Positions 2,937 through 13,498 of a stretch of DNA of 14,563 nucleotides are shown one piece after another. The first letter of the stretch is position 1. Every line of letters starts with the position of its first letter. The notes beneath the pieces were generated by a model. That model saw nothing but the letters and a program-made list of their open reading frames with translations. It did no database searches and was not told the DNA's origin. The stretch covers positions 1 through 14,563 of the forward strand of contig JAPKYG010000088.1 of the NCBI GenBank assembly GCA_026394435.1, read 5' to 3'. Origin of the DNA: Methanobacteriota archaeon (GTDB taxonomy: Archaea; Thermoplasmatota; E2; DHVEG-1). Made by a program: the position numbers and the translations under genes.

Positions 2937-3107
2937 CTAAAATCTCTTTGGTCTGTGTTTTTGATAGCAGTCCCTACAGTACACAGGTTTTGAACCATCC
3001 GGTTTAAAAGGAACTTCACATTCTTTCCCACAATCTGCACAGGTCGCCTTGTGCATTTCTCGTGGTGCGCCCCCAAAACGACTACCGCCACTACTTTCTC
3101 TATACAT
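2937..3107 (-). CDS. Small zinc-ribbon protein, CxxC-x17-CxxC domain family, 56 aa. It is not in the ORF track (below 60 aa); the listed ORF 2915..3118 is the wrong frame.
   Basis: Hand translation of the minus strand from the ATG at 3107: MYRESSGGSRFGGAPREMHKATCADCGKECEVPFKPDGSKPVYCRDCYQKHRPKRF*. The two CxxC motifs are separated by 17 residues (CADCGKECEVPFKPDGSKPVYCRDC), as in the recurring 'CxxC-x17-CxxC domain' small proteins. The protein has a G/S/R-rich basic N-terminus. An oligo-T tract follows about 45 nt after the stop on the coding strand. Confidence 0.65.
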   Translation of the reverse strand: MYRESSGGSRFGGAPREMHKATCADCGKECEVPFKPDGSKPVYCRDCYQKHRPKRF

Positions 3108-3248
3108 TTTTTATACATCCTTTTTTTAGGCTTGTATTATACATTCAGTATTTAAAATTATACATTGATTAATCTGAAGAGAACTTATGATTGGAAACAG
3201 GCTGCAGTGAAATATTAAAATAAACCAAAATGATTTTTCGATGATAAG

Positions 3249-3319
3249 CAGCCCTGAGCGGGGTCGAACCGCTGACGCTGGCTCCAAAGGCCGGCATGTT
3301 ACCGCTACACCACAGGGCC
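3249..3319 (-). tRNA. tRNA-Gln (anticodon UUG), 71 nt, no encoded CCA
   Basis: Reverse complement: GGCCCTG TG GTGT AGCGGTA ACAT G CCGGC CTTTGGA GCCAG CGTC AGCGG TTCGACC CCGCT CAGGGCT G. The cloverleaf folds with a 7-bp acceptor stem (G1·U72 wobble), D-stem GTGT/ACAT, anticodon stem 4/5 paired, loop CU-UUG-GA, and T-arm AGCGG/CCGCT with loop TTCGACC. The discriminator is G73. Confidence 0.85.
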
Positions 3320-3386
3320 ATGTGTTCATACTGGGAATCTTTTATTTTATTTAAGAGTATGCTTTGTACACGTTGGGGCTACATCT

Positions 3387-5073
3387 TTATTTCTTCTGCG
3401 CTGTTTTCTGGATTTTCGCCCAGGCGTCACGCAGTTCAACAGTTCTGTTCAGAACAAGCTTGTTCTGAGTTGCCTCTGGATCAACGCAGAAGTACCCCAG
3501 GCGTTCAAATTGAAATCGATCAAACGGCTTAAGGGTACTCACCGCAGGTTCTACTCTGCATTCATGAAGGACGTCGAGAGAATGAGGGTTGAGAAATTCT
3601 TTGAAATCCGCTTCTTTCTGCCCAGCAGGGTCAACAACAGTAAAAAGCCTGTCGTACAATCGTACCTCGGCAGAGATGGCATGCGGATCTGACACCCAGT
3701 GAATCGTTGATTTCACTTTTCTCCCATCGGGGGCATATCCGCCTTTGGTGGCGGGATCATAGGTACAATACAGCTCAACTATTTTCCCATCTTTTTTCAC
3801 AACCTTGCTGCATTTAATGAAATAAGCGTATCTGAGTCGTACCTCACGATCTGGTGCAAGCCGGTAGAAATCCTTTGGTGGGTTTTCCATGAAATCATCC
3901 TGTTCAATAAAAAGAGTCTTGGAAAACGGTATCCGACGTTTCCCGAGCGCAGGGTCTTCAGGGTTGTTGACCGCTTCAAGCTCCTCCTTTTGATGATCCG
4001 GGTAGTTCTCAAGCACTACTTTGAGTGGACGCAGAACCCCCATAAATCGTGCGGAGGTTTTATTCAGGTCGTCTCGGACATTATGCTCAAGGAATTCAAA
4101 ATCAACCATGCTGTTGACTTTCGCAACACCAATACGTTTACAGAAATTCCGGATCGAAGATGGTGAGTACCCGCGACGACGCATCCCGCTAATGGTTGGT
4201 AACCTGGGATCATCCCAACCAGCAACATACTTCCCTTCGACCAACTGAAGGAGCAAGCGTTTACTCATGACCGTATAGCTGAGGTTCAAGCGGGCGAACT
4301 CAATTTGCTGCGGATGATATACCGCAAGTGCATCAAGGAACCAATCATACAGCGGCCGATGGTTCTCAAACTCAAGGGTACAAATGGAATGGGTGATGCC
4401 TTCAACGGAGTCTTCCAGGCCATGCGCCCAGTCGTACATCGGGTAGATGCACCAGGTATCACCGGTACGATGATGGTTCGCATGCAAGATCCTGTACATC
4501 ACCGGGTCACGCATGTTCAGATTTGGATGCGCCATGTCAATCTTGGCGCGCAGGACTTTTTGGCCATTAGGAAATTCACCTGCTTTCATCCGCTGTAACA
4601 GATCTAGATTCTCCTCAACAGATCGATCACGATACGGGCTGTTTCTCCCTGGTTTGGTAAGAGTCCCTCTGTATTCCGTGATTTTATCGGCAGTAAAATC
4701 ATCCACGTATGCTTTCCCTGCTTTGACTAATTGTACTGCATACTCGTACATCTTTTCAAAATAATCTGAGGCAAAGAACAATCGGTTCTCCCAGTCAAAA
4801 CCAAGCCATTTCACATTCTCTATGATTGACTGAACGTATTCCTCTTCTTCTTTGGTAGGATTCGTATCATCGAACCGAAGGTTGCAGAGGCCTTGGTAGT
4901 CTTCTGCGATCCCGAAGTTTAGACAGATTGATTTCGCATGACCGATGTGCAGGTACCCGTTTGGTTCTGGGGGAAACCTGGTATGAACACGGTCTTTATA
5001 CTTCTTGGTTCTCACGTCTTCATCGATGATTTCTCGAATGAAATCCTTGGTGATAGGTTCTGTTGATTCCATG
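3387..5073 (-). CDS. glnS: Glutaminyl-tRNA synthetase (class I, bacterial discriminating type). The probable true start is the ATG at 5073; the track's 5081 is an in-frame upstream GTG.
   Basis: [20 protein letters not shown]...[41 protein letters not shown]...TVMSKR... The sequence is collinear with, and near-identical in its motifs (HIGH, VMSKR/KMSKS) to, E. coli GlnRS ([41 protein letters not shown]). It is full length at about 561 aa. RBS GGAGAGTGAGG lies just upstream of the ATG at 5073. Confidence 0.95.
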
Positions 5074-5091
5074 TTCCTCACTCTCCTATGA

Positions 5092-5163
5092 CAGCCCCGA
5101 CCAGATTCGAACTGGTGTCTAGAGATCCAGAGTCTCTTGTGCTAACCGCTGCACTACGGGGCC
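5092..5163 (-). tRNA. tRNA-Gln (anticodon CUG), 72 nt, no encoded CCA
   Basis: Reverse complement: GGCCCCG TA GTGC AGCGGTTA GCAC A AGAGA CTCTGGA TCTCT AGAC ACCAG TTCGAAT CTGGT CGGGGCT G. The cloverleaf is perfect apart from a G1·U72 wobble. The anticodon loop is CU-CUG-GA and the discriminator is G73. The 3' end lies only 18 nt upstream of the glnS ATG. Confidence 0.85.
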
Positions 5164-5200
5164 AATAGCCAGTTTTGTTGAGACCAGAAGAGAAAACGTT

Positions 5201-5211
5201 TCATATATAAC
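5201..5211 (-). promoter_or_regulatory. TATA-box-like element (coding strand GTTATATATGA) about 39 nt upstream of the 5' end of tRNA-Gln(CUG). It is the candidate promoter for the tRNA-glnS-tRNA unit.
   Basis: The spacing is compatible with a transcription start about 15 nt upstream of the mature tRNA 5' end. No T-tract separates the tRNA, glnS and the second tRNA. Confidence 0.3.
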
Positions 5212-5714
5212 TTTTCATGCGGTCAACATTTCTGAATGATGAAACGATGAAATGTTTTTTTCTTTGTCTTCCTTTTTCTTTATCCATATACTCCTAAAAA
5301 AATGGTTTGAAAAAAGAAAAACAAGGGAATCAATCAGGAGACTTCCACGAGGAATATCATTACAGACGATTTCGCTACCAGTATTCCATTGCATCGCGTT
5401 TTTCCGGATTGGATAACAACGAACAACGCAAGAGATGACGTTACGTGATTCCTTGTAATCTGCTCCCATGGTATAGTAAAACCTACAGAAGGATATGCCA
5501 CAGAGGTAGGAGAGGGAACAGAAGACATAGCTATTTCTTAATCCAAGGAGGTATCTGAATGGGGAAGAGGTGAAGGAGCATGGAGAATATGTTTTGAGAG
5601 CGACAACTCATACGAACCAGTGTAACTGACTTGCACGTCTTTTATGATTGATCCAAAAGACACCAGAAATACTCGTATTATTTTGGGAAGTATAGTATTT
5701 CCTGGTTCTGCAAG

Positions 5715-6169: not shown

Positions 6170-6601
6170 TTACGTGATTTCCAGGTGAACCACGAATTGC
6201 TGACAGGTATCCTTCTCACCAAACGGTCGTGTACATTCTAAATGAAGCGTGGTACTTCCTGTTTGTGTCGCAGTAAACACCCAGGTGTCTTTCCCAAAAT
6301 CACCGAGCATCCCTGAGCTGCCCCAATTGAACTGGTCGGTTTGGAACAGTAGCTTTTCATCGATACGTTTAACCGTCCAGACGTAGCCGCCATCACCATA
6401 ATCTTGTAACGTGAGATTCACTGTGTCTCCTTTCTTCACAGATACGGTTGTATCGTTCGCATCAGTGTTGATGTATACAGTCGATGGTGTTTGTTTGTTC
6501 ATGGGTTTTTCTGAGGTGAGGTTCACCCCGATTACGGTCCCTGCTGCTACCGCAACGATAGCCACTAGCCCTATGAGTATCAAGCTTTTTTTTGTTTTCA
6601 T
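6170..6601 (-). CDS. Chagasin-family (MEROPS I42) inhibitor of papain-like cysteine peptidases, with an N-terminal signal/anchor, 143 aa
   Basis: N-terminal hydrophobic segment MKTKKSLILIGLVAIVAVAAG. The Ig-like I42 hallmarks are present: ...TLQDYGDGGYVWTV (NPTTG-YxW-like loop), GSSGMLG (GxGG-like loop) and RPFGEKD (RPW/F loop). There is no SD. TTATATATA lies on the coding strand about 32 nt upstream of the ATG, which implies a very short leader. An oligo-T tract follows the stop. Confidence 0.8.
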   Translation of the reverse strand: MKTKKSLILIGLVAIVAVAAGTVIGVNLTSEKPMNKQTPSTVYINTDANDTTVSVKKGDTVNLTLQDYGDGGYVWTVKRIDEKLLFQTDQFNWGSSGMLGDFGKDTWVFTATQTGSTTLHLECTRPFGEKDTCQQFVVHLEIT

Positions 6602-7843: not shown

Positions 7844-9727
7844 ATGTTTGATAATAAAAAATGGTTGAAGTTGTTAATCGTGTCGATGACCGCTCTTCTT
7901 GTCATCGCGCCCGCTAGTGCAGTAACCAATGGAACAAAAACATCTCTGCAAATCGTCTCACCTCTCGCGCAAACTACTCTCAATGCTCCTTTGCAGGATC
8001 CTCCGAGTTCTTTTGACTTGCGAAATGTGAACGGTGCCAACTATGTGACCTCTGTGAAGTCTCAATCAGGTGGTACGTGTTGGACGCACGGGGTGATGGC
8101 TGCCCTCGAGGGGAATCTATTAATGACAGGGAACTGGAATGCAACTGGACATACCGAAGAGGCGAATCTCGCGGAATACCATCTTGATTGGTGGAACGGA
8201 TTTAATACATTTATCAACGATGATTTTCCTGGCAGTGGTCTTCAGGTCCATAACGGAGGAGATTATCTGCTCGCCTCTGCATATATCACCCGCGGGGGTG
8301 GGGCAGTGTATTGTGCAGCTGCAAATAACCCAACAGAGTACGATGACAACTGGTATAATTCAGCGCCTGCGAGATATAATGACTCCTATGAGTTTTTTTA
8401 CCCTAATGACATCGAATGGTTCGTTGCAGGATCAGATCTCAGCAACATCAACACAATTAAGGAGAAGATTATGACAGAGGGGGTCATGGGAACCTGTATC
8501 TGCTATGATTCCAGTTTTGTTTATAACTATGAGAGTTACTACTCCTTTTACCAACCACCTTCATCTACTTATGATCCTAACCATGCAGTTGCTATCGTGG
8601 GCTGGGATGATGACAAAGTTACTCAAGCACCACTACCAGGTGCATGGATTTGTAAAAACAGCTGGGGCTCTGGCTGGGGACCTGAAGACGGTTATTTCTG
8701 GGTTTCCTATTATGACAAATGGTCTGGTCAGCACCCTGAGATGGGAGCAGTATCCTTCCAGGATGTGCAATTCAAGCCTTACAATAACACGTACTTTTAT
8801 GATTATCATGGGTGGCGGGATACACTCACGGACGTCTCCGAAGCGTTCAATGCGTTTGTGTCGAACGGGAATGAGACACTCAAAGCAGTGAGCGTCTACA
8901 CTGCTACCGATGATGTTCAATATACAGTGAAGGTATACGATCGTTTCGAAGGCGGTGTACTTTTAGATGAACGCGCGACCCTGTCTGGGACGATTCTCTA
9001 CAAGGGGTATCATACCATTTCCCTTACACATCCAGTAGGATTCCTTGCAGGTGACGATTATTATATTTATGTAAAACTCTTTTCCGGTGGACAACCCATA
9101 GACCGTACCTCCGAGGTCCCTGTGTTATTAGGTGCACAAGACCAGGGGACGATCGTGAAATCCGTTGCTCACGCAGGAGAGAGTTACTACCGCAGGGGGT
9201 CTTCTTGGCTTGATCTCTACGACTATGTATTCAGCGATCCGACATGGGATCATACGGCGAATTTCTGCATTAAGGGATTCACCACTGGCGGGTGGATGCC
9301 GCACTACCCTGATTTGAATGGCGAAGGAAGCCTGAGCTGGACCGAGATAAAACCTGGTGCGACCATCATCGGTAACTTTACCGTAGGAAACATCGGGGAG
9401 CCCACCTCGGAGCTTGACTGGAAAATCACCGAATGGCCCTCATGGGGAACTTGGACGTTCGCACCTCTAAATGGTACAGATCTTACTCCAGAGGAAGGAT
9501 CGGTCGCGGTGCAGGTGTGGGTTGTCGCTCCATCGGAAAAAAACCAGGAGTTCAATGGAACCGTGAAGGTCGTCAATGCGCATGATCCAACTGATTATGC
9601 AGAGATCCACGTGTATCTAAAAACACCGATGGACCAGCTGTCCGTGAAGTCCCAGGTGTTGAGCCTTCTGAATGGGTTTGCTCAACATTTCCCTGTGATG
9701 AAGTATCTGATGAGACTGTTCTCTTAA
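7844..9727 (+). CDS. Secreted papain-like cysteine peptidase (MEROPS C1A) with a C-terminal beta-sandwich/adhesion-like extension, 627 aa. There is no I29 propeptide.
   Basis: Signal peptide [26 protein letters not shown]. Catalytic Cys block [18 protein letters not shown], His block [12 protein letters not shown], and Asn/Trp block [22 protein letters not shown]. The mature-type N-terminus (SSFDLRNV...) follows the signal peptide directly. There are many N-x-S/T sequons. RBS AGGGGGAA sits 6 nt upstream of the ATG. Confidence 0.85.
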
Positions 9728-9735
9728 GTAATCGT

Positions 9736-9754
9736 CACTTTTTTTCTTTTTTTT
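9736..9754 (+). terminator. Oligo-T tract (TTTTTTTCTTTTTTTT) 7 nt after the peptidase stop; factor-independent, archaeal-style
   Basis: A T-run with no preceding hairpin, seen directly in the sequence. Similar T-runs follow the chagasin, zinc-ribbon and FG-GAP genes. Confidence 0.4.
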
Positions 9755-9779
9755 ACATTGAGAGGCTGTCCAATAATTA

Positions 9780-11535
9780 TTCTCCTGTTGGGACAGGAGA
9801 AGCATTTATCAAATGATACGTGATATCAGGAGCAGGACAGGAGAGATATGGCATTAAGGACAGATAGAATTGGACAGTCGTGGCTGTTTCCACCACGGAT
9901 CACGGATTTCATACCAGGGGATCACATCTGCAACTTGGTTGTTGCTGTAGTGGGCTCTCTTAATATCTGGAGTATAGAAAAGAGGTACCGGTGTCAGCCT
10001 GGTCATCCCGCGTATCCTCGACGTATGCTGCTTCGTTTGATGGTTCAAGCAGCGATTGACGGGATGTTTTCTTCAAGGAAAATTGATCGGTTAGCGCAAG
10101 AGAATGTGATCTATATGTATCTTGCAGGAAACGCGAAACCTGATTTCAGGACATTGTGTAATTTCCGTAGGGAACACAAAGAGTTGATTGAGACGGTGTT
10201 CAAGAAAACTGTTCTGATCGCGAAAGCAGCCGGGGTACTTCAGCTTGGTCATCTGTCGACCGATGGGACGAAGGTGAAAGCGAATGCGTCAAACCAGTAC
10301 ACATTAAGTAAGGCGGAGCTTGAAACGATCCGTCGGATCATTGAACAGGGGATCGCGGTTGACGAAGAAGAGGATCGTTTGTATGGTGACCGTCGTGGTG
10401 ATGAGTTACCACCAGAGTTGAACACGCAGGAGAAGATCCGCAGGAAGATCAAAGAAATCGAGGAGCTGGAGGGGAAACCGTTGAAACAGGCTGCAAAGAA
10501 GATACTACGTCAGCATCTTAGTGGTAGTCAACAGCAGAAGAGGCACGTCATTTGGAAAATCAAGAACGCTGAACAGAAGCTCATGATGAGTGGTCAGAAG
10601 GTTGTGAGTGTGAGTGACCCTGAGGCACGGTTTATGGTGAATAAGAAGAAACGGATAGAACTTTCGTATAATCCTCAGATCACGGTGGATCATGGCTCTG
10701 GGATCATTGTTGCTAATGATGTCACGCAGGACTGCATTGATCGTGAACAACTACAACCGCAGATGGAGAAAACAGAGGAAAACCTTGGAGGACTCCCCAA
10801 GGGTGTAAAGATGAGTTGGGATAATGGGTACTTTAGCGGTCAAAACCTGCACTATTTGGAGGAGAAAGGGGTCGATGGATACATTCCAGATGGTGAACAA
10901 GCTACTGCGATGAAAGGAAAACAGGTGCCTGATGACCCGTACGCCAAAGATCAGTTCATCTACGATGAGACGCAGGACCGCTTCATCTGCCCTCAGGGCA
11001 GAATGCTCACCAGAAAAGGCGAGTACATCCACAACGGTAAACCGGTGTATGCGTATTATGGTGCACCCTGCGAAAGCTGTCTTGTCAGAGCAGTATGCGC
11101 TGGTGAAAACCGATGGAAGATGATCACCAGTTACGGGTTTGAAGGTGAACGACAACGGATGGCTGTAAAAATGCGGTCAGAAGAAGGGAAAGAAGAGTAC
11201 AGGAAACGAAGTGAAACCGTAGAATGGCCGTTCGGTGACATCAAGCAGAACTTTGGGTTACGGGAGTTTCTCACCCGAGGACTTCAAGGCGTGAGAACTG
11301 AACATAACCTGGTATGCACCGGCCATAATCTGAAAATACTTTGGAAGAAGTTGGATGGAAAGATTGCGATGTTGGAAAAAAAGAAAGACATGAGAGTAAT
11401 TTTATCATCAAATACGAGTAGTGTCTTAGATATCTGTTCAAAGTGTATCAAAAAAATCCCGCGAAAGTTGAATTGTTAGACGGCCTCTTGGTTAGCACAA
11501 AACATGCGTTAAAACCGTGTTAATGCTTCTCCGAT
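9780..11535 (+). mobile_element. Putative IS element carrying the transposase; the ends are approximate
   Basis: A perfect 9-bp hairpin TTCTCCTGT-tggg-ACAGGAGAA lies at 9780-9801. An exact 11-bp inverted match, GGAGAAGCATT (9795-9805) / AATGCTTCTCC (11519-11529), sits symmetrically about 50 bp from each end of the transposase ORF. The match does not extend into a long IR and no clear target-site duplication was found. Confidence 0.35.
9848..11479 (+). CDS. DDE transposase, IS5/IS1182 superfamily (InsH-type N-terminal DUF772 domain), 543 aa
   Basis: N-terminal PGHPAYPRRMLLRLMVQAAIDGMFSSRKIDRLAQENVIYMYLAGNAKPDFRTLCNFRR matches the DUF772/InsH N-terminal signature (PGRPxYxPxxLLKxLLYGYxxGxxSSRKLE...FRWLxG...PDHSTIxRFR). 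A charged linker is followed by a DDE core (SWDNGYFSGQNL..., YRKRSETVEWPFGDIKQNFGLREF). A C-terminal CPxG...C..C cluster is typical of IS1182-like transposases. RBS GGAGAG. Confidence 0.85.
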   Translation: MALRTDRIGQSWLFPPRITDFIPGDHICNLVVAVVGSLNIWSIEKRYRCQPGHPAYPRRMLLRLMVQAAIDGMFSSRKIDRLAQENVIYMYLAGNAKPDFRTLCNFRREHKELIETVFKKTVLIAKAAGVLQLGHLSTDGTKVKANASNQYTLSKAELETIRRIIEQGIAVDEEEDRLYGDRRGDELPPELNTQEKIRRKIKEIEELEGKPLKQAAKKILRQHLSGSQQQKRHVIWKIKNAEQKLMMSGQKVVSVSDPEARFMVNKKKRIELSYNPQITVDHGSGIIVANDVTQDCIDREQLQPQMEKTEENLGGLPKGVKMSWDNGYFSGQNLHYLEEKGVDGYIPDGEQATAMKGKQVPDDPYAKDQFIYDETQDRFICPQGRMLTRKGEYIHNGKPVYAYYGAPCESCLVRAVCAGENRWKMITSYGFEGERQRMAVKMRSEEGKEEYRKRSETVEWPFGDIKQNFGLREFLTRGLQGVRTEHNLVCTGHNLKILWKKLDGKIAMLEKKKDMRVILSSNTSSVLDICSKCIKKIPRKLNC

Positions 11536-11881
11536 ACAAGTAACTAAATCTATTATTTTTCTGAAGAATAAGGAAATGGGGAGTCCAGTCTGGGAGGAAA
11601 GGTAGATAAAATAAGGGTAGAACAATCGTAGGGGAAAGCTCTACCTGATCTACTATTGACTCCCCAAGATGTTATTATCTTTTTATTGTATAAAAACGTT
11701 TGGCTAAATTGGGAAATAGGTTTTAAAGAAGTAACCACAGAGTTATAGTAATGGATAAATGAAATCAGTCTCGTGATCTTTTGTTACCATTGTTTCCAAT
11801 TTTATATTTTACAAACATTTAAATGAAGCTACAGGATAATAACTCTTACAAAATCTAATATTTAAGGGAGGTCGAAAGAAC

Positions 11882-13498
11882 ATGAACAAGAAAATAATTG
11901 GTATTTTGATTTGTATGCTATTGATAGCTGCTGCTGTTCCGGCTGTCGGGTCTTTAAAAAATAGTACAACAAATTCAACGGTTCCAAGCATCCCTGTGAG
12001 AAGCATGGTAGCGAGCTGGATTGAAAAGCAAAAGCTCCTCACCTCAGACAGATTACTATATGGCGCTGTCGGCTGGTCTGTTTCTCTTAATGGTGACACC
12101 GCTCTCATCGGAGCACCATATTCTGGGTTGGCGTACGTGTTCACCCGCACCGGCACCACTTGGACCAAACAACAAAAGCTTCTCGTATCAGACGGTCCAG
12201 CAGAGAATTATTTTGGCTGGTCTGTTTCACTCTCTGGTGACACCGCTCTCATCGGAGCACTACTCGCTGATAACAACGGAGCCGGTTCGGTGTATGTGTT
12301 CACCCGCACTGGTACCACCTGGACCCAGCAGGCAAAGCTCCTCGCCGCAGACGGCGCAGCAGGAGCTTCTTTTGGCTACTCTGTTTCTCTTTCGGGTGAC
12401 ACCGCCCTCATCGGAGCAACGAATGATGATGACAACGGAGACCAATCTGGTTCTGCGTATGTGTTCACCCGCACCGGAACCACCTGGACCCAGCAACAAA
12501 AGCTCCTTGATTCAAACGGTGCAGAATTTGATCAGTTTGGCTGGTCTGTTTCTCTTTCGGGTGACACCGCCCTCATCGGAGCAATGAATGATGATGACAA
12601 CGGAAACTATTCTGGTTCTGCGTACGTGTTCACCCGCACCGGAACCACCTGGACCCAACAGCAAAAGCTCTTTGCTTCAAACCCCAAAGAATTTAATCAG
12701 TTTGGCTGTTCTGTTTCTATTGATGGTGACACTGCCCTCATCGGAGCACTATGGGATAATGACAACGGAAACTTTTCAGGGTCGGCGTACGTGTTCACCC
12801 GCACCGGTACCACCTGGACCCAGCAAGTAAAACTCCTCGCCTCAGATGGTCTAGCAAATGACTGGTTTGGCTGGTCTGTTTCTCTTTCTGGTGACACCGC
12901 GCTCATAGGAGCACCTCAGGATAATGACAACGGAAACTTTTCAGGGTCGGCGTACGTGTTCACCCGCACCGGTACCACCTGGACACAACAACAAAAACTG
13001 CTCGCCGCAGCCGGCGCAGCAGGGGACTGGTTTGGCTGGTCTGTTTCTCTTGCTGGAGACACTGCCTTCATCGGAGCACCATTTGATTTTGTCAAACGAT
13101 TCTTTTTAGGGTCGGTGTATGTGTTCACCCGCACCGGCACCATCTGGACCGAGCAAACCAGACTTCGCTCCTTATCTGGAACAAGTGGAATTGGTGGTAC
13201 TTTTGCGGGAAACCTTAGTTATTCACCAAACGGGAAAAAAGTTGGAGAGATCTCTGGAAGTTTTCCCACGAAAAATAAATTCCAAGGCAATTGGAATGTT
13301 TCAACAAATCCGGGAACCGTACAGTTCTTCTTCGGACGATATAATCTAATTGGTAAGATAAGAACACATGGGATAACAATACCTATTACGGGCGTCTACA
13401 CGTTCGATGAAACTACAAAAACATTCGCTGGAAGACTCACACCAGTATTAATAATTGTTTATTGTGTCCCAATATACTTCCAAGGCATTTGCACTTAA
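11882..13498 (+). CDS. Secreted FG-GAP / integrin-alpha-type beta-propeller repeat protein, 538 aa
   Basis: Signal peptide MNKKIIGILICMLLIAAAVPAVGS. Seven 53-55-aa repeats of FGWSVSLSGDTALIGAxNDDDNGNxSGSAYVFTRTGTTWTQQQKLLASDG (FG...GAP plus DxDxDG Ca-binding-like loops) would form seven blades. Strong RBS AGGGAGG. Many N-x-S/T sequons. Confidence 0.8.
   Translation: MNKKIIGILICMLLIAAAVPAVGSLKNSTTNSTVPSIPVRSMVASWIEKQKLLTSDRLLYGAVGWSVSLNGDTALIGAPYSGLAYVFTRTGTTWTKQQKLLVSDGPAENYFGWSVSLSGDTALIGALLADNNGAGSVYVFTRTGTTWTQQAKLLAADGAAGASFGYSVSLSGDTALIGATNDDDNGDQSGSAYVFTRTGTTWTQQQKLLDSNGAEFDQFGWSVSLSGDTALIGAMNDDDNGNYSGSAYVFTRTGTTWTQQQKLFASNPKEFNQFGCSVSIDGDTALIGALWDNDNGNFSGSAYVFTRTGTTWTQQVKLLASDGLANDWFGWSVSLSGDTALIGAPQDNDNGNFSGSAYVFTRTGTTWTQQQKLLAAAGAAGDWFGWSVSLAGDTAFIGAPFDFVKRFFLGSVYVFTRTGTIWTEQTRLRSLSGTSGIGGTFAGNLSYSPNGKKVGEISGSFPTKNKFQGNWNVSTNPGTVQFFFGRYNLIGKIRTHGITIPITGVYTFDETTKTFAGRLTPVLIIVYCVPIYFQGICT
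12057..13165. repeat. Tandem array of about 7 x 165-bp coding repeats (first period 159 bp) with long identical stretches
   Basis: GTGTTCACCC recurs at 12137, 12296, 12461, 12626, 12791, 12956 and 13121. Units 5 and 6 share more than 60 identical consecutive nucleotides (gataatgacaacggaaacttttcagggtcggcgtacgtgttcacccgcaccggtaccacctggac). Confidence 0.85.

Follow-up and report, generated by a model that had tools for sequence, protein, structure and literature searches.

The 14,563-nt stretch of archaeal DNA analyzed here (hereafter the window; contig JAPKYG010000088.1 of assembly GCA_026394435.1) carries on its minus strand a bacterial-type glnS gene, which codes for glutaminyl-tRNA synthetase (GlnRS), set between two tRNA-Gln genes. 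We favor, at a probability of about 0.75, the reading that an old bacterial GlnRS is resident in an archaeal clade between native tRNA-Gln genes that have been retuned, and that it charges them directly. Contrary to the textbook rule for archaea, direct charging of glutamine is very probable in this clade. A 2016 survey reported GlnRS as absent from the archaeal genomes analyzed (PMC5388404), and a 2021 review placed “all known archaeal genomes” among those without the enzyme (PMC8007984). A 2022 review has “almost all archaea” using the indirect route through non-discriminating glutamyl-tRNA synthetase (GluRS) and GatDE, and suggests orthogonal archaeal tRNA-Gln as the reason for the absence of GlnRS (PMC8762117).

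Layout of the Cassette

The order on the minus strand is tRNA-Gln(CUG), glnS, tRNA-Gln(UUG). The features, including a candidate B recognition element (BRE), are listed here from 5' to 3' in window coordinates.

5203..5216, minus strand: putative promoter P1, purine-rich BRE-like GAAAAG (5216-5211) and TATA box TTATATAT (5210-5203)
5092..5163, minus strand: tRNA-Gln(CUG), by ARAGORN and Rfam (67 bits)
5073..5091, minus strand: 19-nt spacer with Shine-Dalgarno-like GGAG (5086-5083) and GTGAGG (5081-5076)
3387..5072 including stop, minus strand: glnS, 561 aa, predicted bacterial-type discriminating GlnRS, by TIGR00440, Pfam, and structures
3333..3362, minus strand: putative promoter P2, block GCATACTCTTAAATAAAATAAAAGATTCCC with TATA-like TTAAATAA at 3354-3347
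3249..3319, minus strand: tRNA-Gln(UUG), by ARAGORN and Rfam (53 bits)
3217..3230, minus strand: T-rich tract TTTTGGTTTATTTT 3' of tRNA-Gln(UUG), candidate archaeal oligo-T terminator

ARAGORN and Rfam (gathering score 29) find exactly two tRNA genes in the window, both tRNA-Gln and both on the minus strand. The 3' end of tRNA-Gln(CUG) lies 19 nt from the glnS ATG at 5072, and the TAA stop codon (3389-3387) is 67 nt from tRNA-Gln(UUG). An earlier reading of the same DNA, below called the original prediction, had described this cassette rightly, giving spacers of 18 and 66 nt that are within a base of those measured, but had left the minus strand unstated; ARAGORN, Rfam, and the TIGR00440 match detailed below establish the cassette as real. 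We compared it with related glnS loci and lineages, labeled L081, L209, and so on. Of 10 distinct related lineages, 8 keep the tRNA-glnS-tRNA order and none is without a tRNA-Gln gene flanking glnS, so the arrangement is not due to chance.

A Predicted Full-Length Bacterial-Type GlnRS

The glnS product is predicted to be a complete bacterial-type discriminating GlnRS under constraint. It scores 735 bits against the glnS equivalog model TIGR00440, above the cut-off of 425.8, and 357.7 against the archaeal GluRS model TIGR00463, under that model's cut-off of 401.75. Three Pfam GlnRS/GluRS domains are matched, namely the catalytic domain and both anticodon-binding domains (PF03950 and PF20974, the C-terminal pair). 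The protein aligns end to end, at ∼60% identity, with the solved GlnRS structures from E. coli (1GTR/1QTQ) and P. aeruginosa (5BNZ), with structure-sequence scores of 715 bits for P. aeruginosa, 697 for E. coli, and ∼470 for human GlnRS. Residues R30, E34, D66, Y211, C229, and Q255 and the HIGH and MSK motifs (E. coli numbering here and below) are invariant in 17 archaeal sequences, as are the anticodon-binding residues R341, R402, R410, Q517, and R520; HIGH/KMSKS and the glutamine-pocket residues (R30, Y211, C229, Q255, D66, and E34) are also kept in nearly all of 48 bacterial sequences. Among relatives, the ratio of nonsynonymous to synonymous divergence (dN/dS) of glnS is 0.05-0.12, and dS reaches 1.9. 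A full-length discriminating enzyme of bacterial type had been predicted, and the passed cut-off and the retained pocket and anticodon residues agree with it.

The same data bear on the idea that the protein is a paralogue with another role, for example GluQRS-like tRNA modification or regulation, which we regard as highly improbable. There is a general precedent in aminoacyl-tRNA synthetase paralogues, and GluQRS models do match the window GlnRS weakly, but nothing specific speaks for such a role and the scores fall far under the cut-offs of those models. The full length, the presence of both anticodon-binding domains, the invariant glutamine- and anticodon-binding residues, a TIGR00440 score far above its cut-off, and the tight linkage to both tRNA-Gln genes all argue against it.

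Some public records of these proteins need comment. The label “glutamine--tRNA ligase/YqeY domain fusion protein” is attached by NCBI to P0003, P0039, P0136, and others, which are 561 aa long and have no YqeY domain. The name is misapplied, because the YqeY part of the fusion model PRK14703 is unmatched: only model positions 10-563 of 769 align, and no GatB_Yqey Pfam match, the sign of the C-terminal YqeY/GatB-like domain (∼200 aa in the fusion), is found in the 561-aa protein. Both homology searches ranked first P0001 (ENA, 6.5-kb contig), a GlnRS of 832 aa in which ∼270 residues are duplicated internally; the duplication is probably an assembly artefact, and the entry was disregarded in the comparisons. 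We also considered Asn at E. coli position D235, which we take to be the site of the glnS7 relaxed-specificity mutation, as an archaeal adaptation to the C3-G70 pair of the tRNAs, and rejected it because 14 of 47 bacterial relatives carry Asn there, some with G3-C70 tRNAs.

Two tRNAs with an Archaeal Body

tRNA-Gln(CUG) has G1·U72, G2-C71, C3-G70, G10, the anticodon loop CUCUGGA, and G73, without an encoded CCA, and its sequence is identical across relatives except at position 1 (A in L083, L084, L086, L211, and L213), even where glnS has diverged to a dS of up to 1.9. tRNA-Gln(UUG) likewise has G1·U72, G73, a short D-loop, and no encoded CCA. The cloverleaf pairs are backed by compensatory changes, which in tRNA-Gln(UUG) fall at 6-67, 27-43, and 49-65; its anticodon stem contains a C28·A42 mismatch common to L081, L082, and L211, where more distant relatives have U-A.

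The 5' part of the cassette tRNAs, AGCCCyGTrGTGyAGyGG (with A1-U72 in most relatives), the G37/A38 loop, and the unencoded CCA are like those of canonical archaeal tRNA-Gln. From these features we take the cassette tRNAs to be native and archaeal in type and not imported with glnS, because A1-U72, the archaeal D-arm, G37/A38, and the missing CCA are unlike the U1-A72 tRNAs of bacteria. The original prediction had pictured glnS as packaged with its two cognate tRNAs. The physical linkage to both isoacceptors stands; the tRNAs as part of the transferred package do not.

That picture would have the tRNAs arrive from a bacterial donor together with glnS as one cassette. Its appeal comes from bacterial loci in possible donor phyla: tRNA-Gln lies within ∼1 kb of glnS in 10 of 80 bacterial loci and within 300 nt in at least 7 of the 80, always as the CUG isoacceptor (L012, L024, L028, L047, L059, L065, and L069, from Chloroflexota, Desulfobacterota, and Bacteroidota). 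This adjacency looks like a recurrent linkage, a description of which we have not met so far. However, the tRNA-Gln genes next to bacterial glnS show U1-A72, G73, and a D-arm of the GTCTAGTGGTAGGAC type, and they often encode CCA, whereas the cassette tRNAs have A1/G1-U72, G37/A38, and no CCA, and a decayed archaeal copy of canonical form is found in the same locus in L210. Joint import is consequently very improbable in our view.

In L210 this copy, at 11740-11812, is a weak fourth tRNA that scores 30.5 bits in Rfam (gathering score 29) and lies in the stretch from glnS to the G73 tRNA-Gln(UUG). With A1-U72, A73, and a long D-loop it follows the canonical archaeal pattern for tRNA-Gln(UUG), but several of its pairs are mismatched. 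It may be a decaying copy, or a leftover of the tRNA that served before the arrival of GlnRS.

Discriminator, D-Loop, and First Base Pair

Reconstructed ancestral archaeal tRNA-Gln carries A73, and the E. coli GlnRS identity set includes G73, U1-A72, G2-C71, G3-C70, G10, U35, and G36 (PMC13433404). GatDE reads A1-U72, the archaeal tRNA-Gln hallmark, and the D-loop of tRNA-Gln (PMC2330236). A pattern fixed at the D-loop, at the anticodon loop CTTTGGA, and at the T-loop, and free at positions 1, 72, and 73, was run over metagenome contigs (120 loci). The distances below are counted from the GG of the D-loop up to the anticodon loop.

Archaeal-type tRNA-Gln(UUG), A1-U72 (n = 69): A73 in 61, G73 in 6, U73 in 2
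Archaeal-type tRNAs with A73 (n = 61): distance 14 nt in 55, 13 nt in 6
Bacterial-type tRNA-Gln(UUG), U1-A72 (n = 44): G73 in 41; distance 12 nt in all 41
GlnRS-linked archaeal tRNAs: G73 in all; distance 12-13 nt

The D-loop of the GlnRS-linked tRNAs is 1-2 nt shorter than the archaeal norm. Both this shortening and G73 run towards the bacterial state, because G73 is an E. coli GlnRS element, the archaeal ancestor has A73, and the bacterial D-loop distance is 12 nt. Three of the six archaeal-type G73 tRNAs come from the GlnRS lineage, and the one in L129 adjoins a GlnRS 76% identical to that of the window. Of the E. coli identity set the cassette tRNAs carry only a part, with a weak 1-72 pair, G2-C71, G10, U35, and G36 besides G73; a weak first pair is expected as a GlnRS requirement from the E. 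coli enzyme.

The first pair has changed within the clade. G1·U72 occurs only in the window and in L081 and L082 (GlnRS at least 94% identical), in both isoacceptors, and A1 is found in L213 (GlnRS 93%), L211 (89%), and all more distant relatives; the A1-U72 loci are L083, L084, L086, L129, L209, L210, L211, and L213. Neither A1-U72 nor A73 combined with a D-loop GG distance of 13-14 nt, the canonical marks of a GatDE substrate, is present in the window tRNAs. The change from A1 to G1 removes a GatDE determinant, and we read it as relaxed GatDE constraint. This suggests that the indirect route may no longer be used, at least in the sublineage of the window.

Host and Origin of glnS

Homology searching gives more than 230 clusters (90% identity level) at 76-96% identity to the window GlnRS; an exact look-up of that protein gave no record. 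Most matches carry no source name, and the source-named clusters are all Thermoplasmata, Thermoplasmatales, Thermoplasmatota, Euryarchaeota, or uncultured archaeon. The order tRNA(CUG)-glnS-tRNA(UUG) is present on two closed chromosomes labeled Thermoplasmatales archaeon, CP070712.1 (1.82 Mb) and CP070798.1 (1.92 Mb), and the cassette neighbors in CP070798.1 have MJ1316, Volactin, and DUF131 domains, which we take to be mainly archaeal. The chagasin inhibitor and the C1 peptidase of the window recur on three contigs (200, 240, and 961 kb), joined on the 200-kb contig by the Band_7 protein, and independent NCBI, ENA, and JGI assemblies hold the same cassette and neighbors. The predicted archaeal host is borne out by the Thermoplasmata-type names, the closed chromosomes, and the synteny. 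Given the reviews cited above, the original prediction was justified in calling the cassette a notable exception to the archaeal rule; the cassette is not a one-off, with more than 230 clusters, closed chromosomes, and NCBI records annotated as glutamine--tRNA ligase.

Among the matches listed by the genome contig scan, all of them bacterial, GlnRS identity does not exceed 71%, the nearest being from Pirellulales, other Planctomycetota, Chloroflexota, and Nitrospirota. A neighbor-joining tree places the 17 sampled archaeal GlnRS as one clade within a poorly resolved bacterial radiation, in agreement with the predicted lateral acquisition. A single old bacteria-to-archaea transfer of glnS would fit these data, because the archaeal enzymes are monophyletic inside the bacterial radiation and even the nearest bacteria among the matches listed reach at most 71% identity. 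The G+C content at third codon positions (GC3) of glnS tracks that of host genes, from 0.18 to 0.57 across relatives. This, with the dN/dS values of 0.05-0.12, argues for an old, vertically inherited transfer and not for contamination.

Two observations might have suggested a bacterial window, or an archaeal bin into which the cassette came by contamination or by a chimeric join. The GlnRS is bacterial in type, and the flanking Band_7 protein has its best matches on the same contigs, few of them named (one Methanoperedens, one “bacterium”). Of the separate searches that the original prediction had advised, then, the one with GlnRS returned archaeal names and the one with Band_7 almost no taxon names. 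Such an artefact is nevertheless extremely improbable, in view of the independent assemblies in three databases, the two closed chromosomes, the archaeal-type tRNAs and promoters, the host-matched composition of glnS, and a viral contig scan in which no clade member was found on viral contigs. Taken with the shared synteny and the dN/dS values, these data rule out, to the extent that sequences are able to, contamination, chimeric joining, and a mobile element of recent arrival.

Expression Signals

Upstream of tRNA-Gln(CUG), the only conserved stretch in six loci with diverged flanks is ATGAAAAGyTATATATGA, which corresponds to P1 and lies 40-53 nt before the tRNA in the window. L209 and L210, the closed genomes, have an equivalent, CAAAAGTTAwATA, at 31-48 nt upstream. 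The TATA-like box that had been noted upstream of the first tRNA is thus part of a conserved block. We propose from promoter geometry that P1 is the archaeal promoter of tRNA-Gln(CUG) and glnS; by the standard archaeal geometry, transcription would start ∼17 nt before the tRNA. In 7 of 7 loci compared, GGAG, GAGG, or GGTG motifs stand 5-12 nt before the glnS ATG. The 19-nt gap is too short for a separate archaeal promoter, so glnS would be expressed from a tRNA-mRNA precursor.

Between glnS and tRNA-Gln(UUG), the P2 core CTTAAATAAAATmAAAGATTCCC is kept in 6 of 6 aligned loci. Its TATA-like TTAAATAA is 28-35 nt before the tRNA, and TATA-like elements occupy the same place in L129, L209, and L210. 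Because this conserved TATA-like block sits between the two genes, tRNA-Gln(UUG) probably has its own promoter. The single transcription unit of the original prediction is therefore retained for tRNA-Gln(CUG) and glnS, given their putative joint transcription across the 19-nt gap, and not for tRNA-Gln(UUG). Neither a sigma-70 promoter excess nor an intrinsic (hairpin) terminator was found in 3100-5400. T-runs lie directly 3' of tRNA-Gln(UUG) in L083, L084, and L086.

Proposed Mechanism and the Fate of the Indirect Route

Our proposal runs as follows. The ancestor of a large uncultured Thermoplasmatota clade would have gained a bacterial glnS once, and the gene would have become fixed beside the host's own tRNA-Gln genes. 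GlnRS would have stayed an ordinary discriminating enzyme, with most of the visible adaptation in the tRNAs: native tRNA-Gln may have kept the archaeal body and the weak A1-U72 pair, changed the discriminator from A73 to G73 (one of the major identity elements for E. coli GlnRS), and shrunk the D-loop to bacterial length. P1 would drive a tRNA(CUG)-glnS precursor; cleavage by RNase P and RNase Z would free the tRNA, and the remaining glnS mRNA would have a Shine-Dalgarno leader of 19 nt. P2 would drive the tRNA-Gln(UUG) transcript. GlnRS would then glutaminylate both isoacceptors directly. In the shallow sublineage of the window, A1 would have become G1 in both tRNAs, removing the pair recognized by GatDE. 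The sequence data show which genes are present, their conservation, the archaeal nature of the host, and the tRNA features together with their rarity among archaeal tRNA-Gln. Aminoacylation activity, transcript structure, a causal link between G73 and GlnRS, and loss of GatDE are what we infer from the comparisons above.

Several observations weigh against this reading. The cassette is not invariant: L129 has glnS-tRNA(UUG)-tRNA(Glu) with the upstream tRNA(CUG) missing, and L213 (GCA_902384685.1; GlnRS 93% identical) has tRNA(CUG)-glnS without tRNA(UUG). In L213 the divergence begins in the middle of the conserved block (4686-4860), which points to loss of tRNA(UUG) by a rearrangement that would have started inside P2. 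The association of G73 with GlnRS has one evolutionary origin, and counts as one correlated event and not as a statistic. Archaeal-type (A1-U72) tRNA-Gln(UUG) with G73, two with an encoded CCA, also occur in other lineages (L160, L165, and L189), and GlnRS is absent from their available flanks. These tRNAs may mark other GlnRS-bearing archaea, or G73 may arise without GlnRS, since the available flanks show none. Of the E. coli identity elements, the cassette tRNAs do not have U1-A72 as such, G3-C70, or A37 and U38, which also belong to the E. coli tRNA-Gln identity set. On the enzyme side, the archaeal and bacterial alignment contains no archaeal-specific change at known tRNA-contacting GlnRS residues. 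Clade-specific substitutions at otherwise conserved sites number only two, at E. coli positions 84 and 510, and we know of no tRNA contact at either. No GlnRS substitution coinciding with the A1-to-G1 change was found when one was looked for. Finally, A1-U72 is kept in 7 of 9 distinct lineages, which is compatible with continued GatDE use.

The last point favors a redundant arrangement, in which GlnRS works but archaeal GluRS and GatDE are still a main source of Gln-tRNA-Gln and the tRNAs serve both, like in Deinococcus or Bdellovibrio, bacteria that have an amidotransferase besides GlnRS. The pair retained by the seven archaeal lineages is the one that GatDE recognizes (PMC2330236), and bacteria with GlnRS plus GatCAB are documented (PMC4206432). 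Against redundancy, the window sublineage has G1·U72 in both isoacceptors, the discriminator and the D-loop (a GatDE recognition region) are off the archaeal norm, and the only canonical-type copy seen, that in L210, is decayed. We therefore consider it unlikely that the indirect route is still a main source of Gln-tRNA-Gln.

Within the reading of direct charging that we prefer, a stronger version holds that GlnRS has fully replaced the GluRS/GatDE route, enabled by the retuning of the tRNAs (A73 to G73, the shorter D-loop, and the loss of A1 in the sublineage). This extension is tentative, and we put it at somewhat less than an even chance. If replacement were true, the barrier that has been proposed to exclude GlnRS from archaea, tRNA orthogonality, would here have been breached in nature, and the earlier system would have left behind the decayed A73 copy in L210.

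Neighboring Genes

Other features of the window and of the related loci are recorded here as side observations. The chagasin-family I42 inhibitor is encoded at 6170-6601 (minus strand), and the secreted C1 peptidase, with a lectin-like domain, at 7844-9727 (plus strand). The neighborhood in L081, L083, L084, and L209 adds C11, C14, and C25 peptidases, and such a protease-rich setting suggests a protein-degrading lifestyle. An intact IS1182-family transposase (NF033551, 409 bits) lies at 9848-11479 (plus strand); a search for its terminal inverted repeats found none, and the sole inverted repeat in 9600-11800 is a local 14-nt hairpin at 9775-9806. A 538-aa secreted protein with seven near-identical FG-GAP repeats (PF14312, 415 bits) is encoded at 11882-13498 (plus strand).

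In the more AT-rich relatives (L114 122-280, L129 2984-3130, and L210 11920-13182), tRNA-Glu(UUC) follows tRNA-Gln(UUG). The spacing between the two is 10 nt in L114 and 1.1 kb in L210, and the downstream tRNA-Glu-like sequence in L129 received no ARAGORN call.

Relation to Known Systems and Significance

The cassette resembles the GlnRS/tRNA-Gln systems of bacteria (E. coli and P. aeruginosa) in the ∼60% identity of the enzyme, its domain set, and the active-site and anticodon residues checked, as well as in G73, G2-C71, G10, U35, and G36 of the tRNAs. Unlike those systems it has an archaeal host, A1/G1-U72 in place of U1-A72, C3-G70 in place of G3-C70, G37/A38 in place of A37/U38, no encoded CCA, and archaeal-type expression signals. 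With the archaeal route through non-discriminating GluRS and GatDE (A1-U72/A73), it has in common the tRNA scaffold and, in most of the clade, A1-U72; it differs in the dedicated GlnRS, G73, a D-loop 1-2 nt shorter, and the loss of A1 in the window sublineage.

Linkage of tRNA and synthetase genes has other precedents. In pylT-pylS, a portable pair encoding a new amino acid, a synthetase gene is linked to a dedicated tRNA-Pyl gene. The cassette is similar in joining a synthetase gene to its dedicated tRNAs, but here the tRNAs are taken to be resident and only the enzyme imported. The E. coli thrU-tyrU-glyT-thrT-tufB locus is a bacterial tRNA-mRNA operon. Both it and the bacterial tRNA-Gln(CUG)-glnS loci have a tRNA directly upstream of a gene for a translation factor or a synthetase, implying a shared precursor as proposed here, whereas the present cassette has an archaeal promoter architecture and both isoacceptors flanking the gene.

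The closest conceptual parallel is the set of bacteria from the candidate phyla radiation (CPR) whose TyrRS and TrpRS are archaeal-derived (Mukai et al. 2017, PMC5370408), and which likewise combine a cross-domain synthetase with a switch of identity in the recipient tRNA. The case described here differs from that account in its direction, from bacteria to archaea, in the amino acid, and in concerning a synthetase normally absent from the recipient domain. In some Heimdallarchaeia, namely Hodarchaeales and Kariarchaeaceae, GlnRS genes neighbor cox genes, as a 2024 preprint mentions (bioRxiv 10.1101/2024.07.04.601786). These too are GlnRS genes in archaeal genomes, set apart by their description: they belong to another phylum and have a cox neighborhood, and the text of the preprint contains no tRNA linkage or retuning. 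We searched the literature for GlnRS in archaea other than Asgard and found neither the Thermoplasmatota clade nor the tRNA linkage nor the discriminator switch described. The genes are already automatically annotated in public records, and the clade, the linkage, and the switch appear to be undescribed in the literature searched.

The clade is abundant in metagenomes, closed genomes included, and offers a natural case of GlnRS crossing the domain boundary, with a cassette that shows which tRNA positions changed upon the crossing. The pair of synthetase and tRNA, with its mixed identity rules, may be of use for genetic-code engineering, and the cassette may serve as a tracing marker for this Thermoplasmatota lineage. 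Why GlnRS spread in bacteria but not in archaea becomes a directly testable question.

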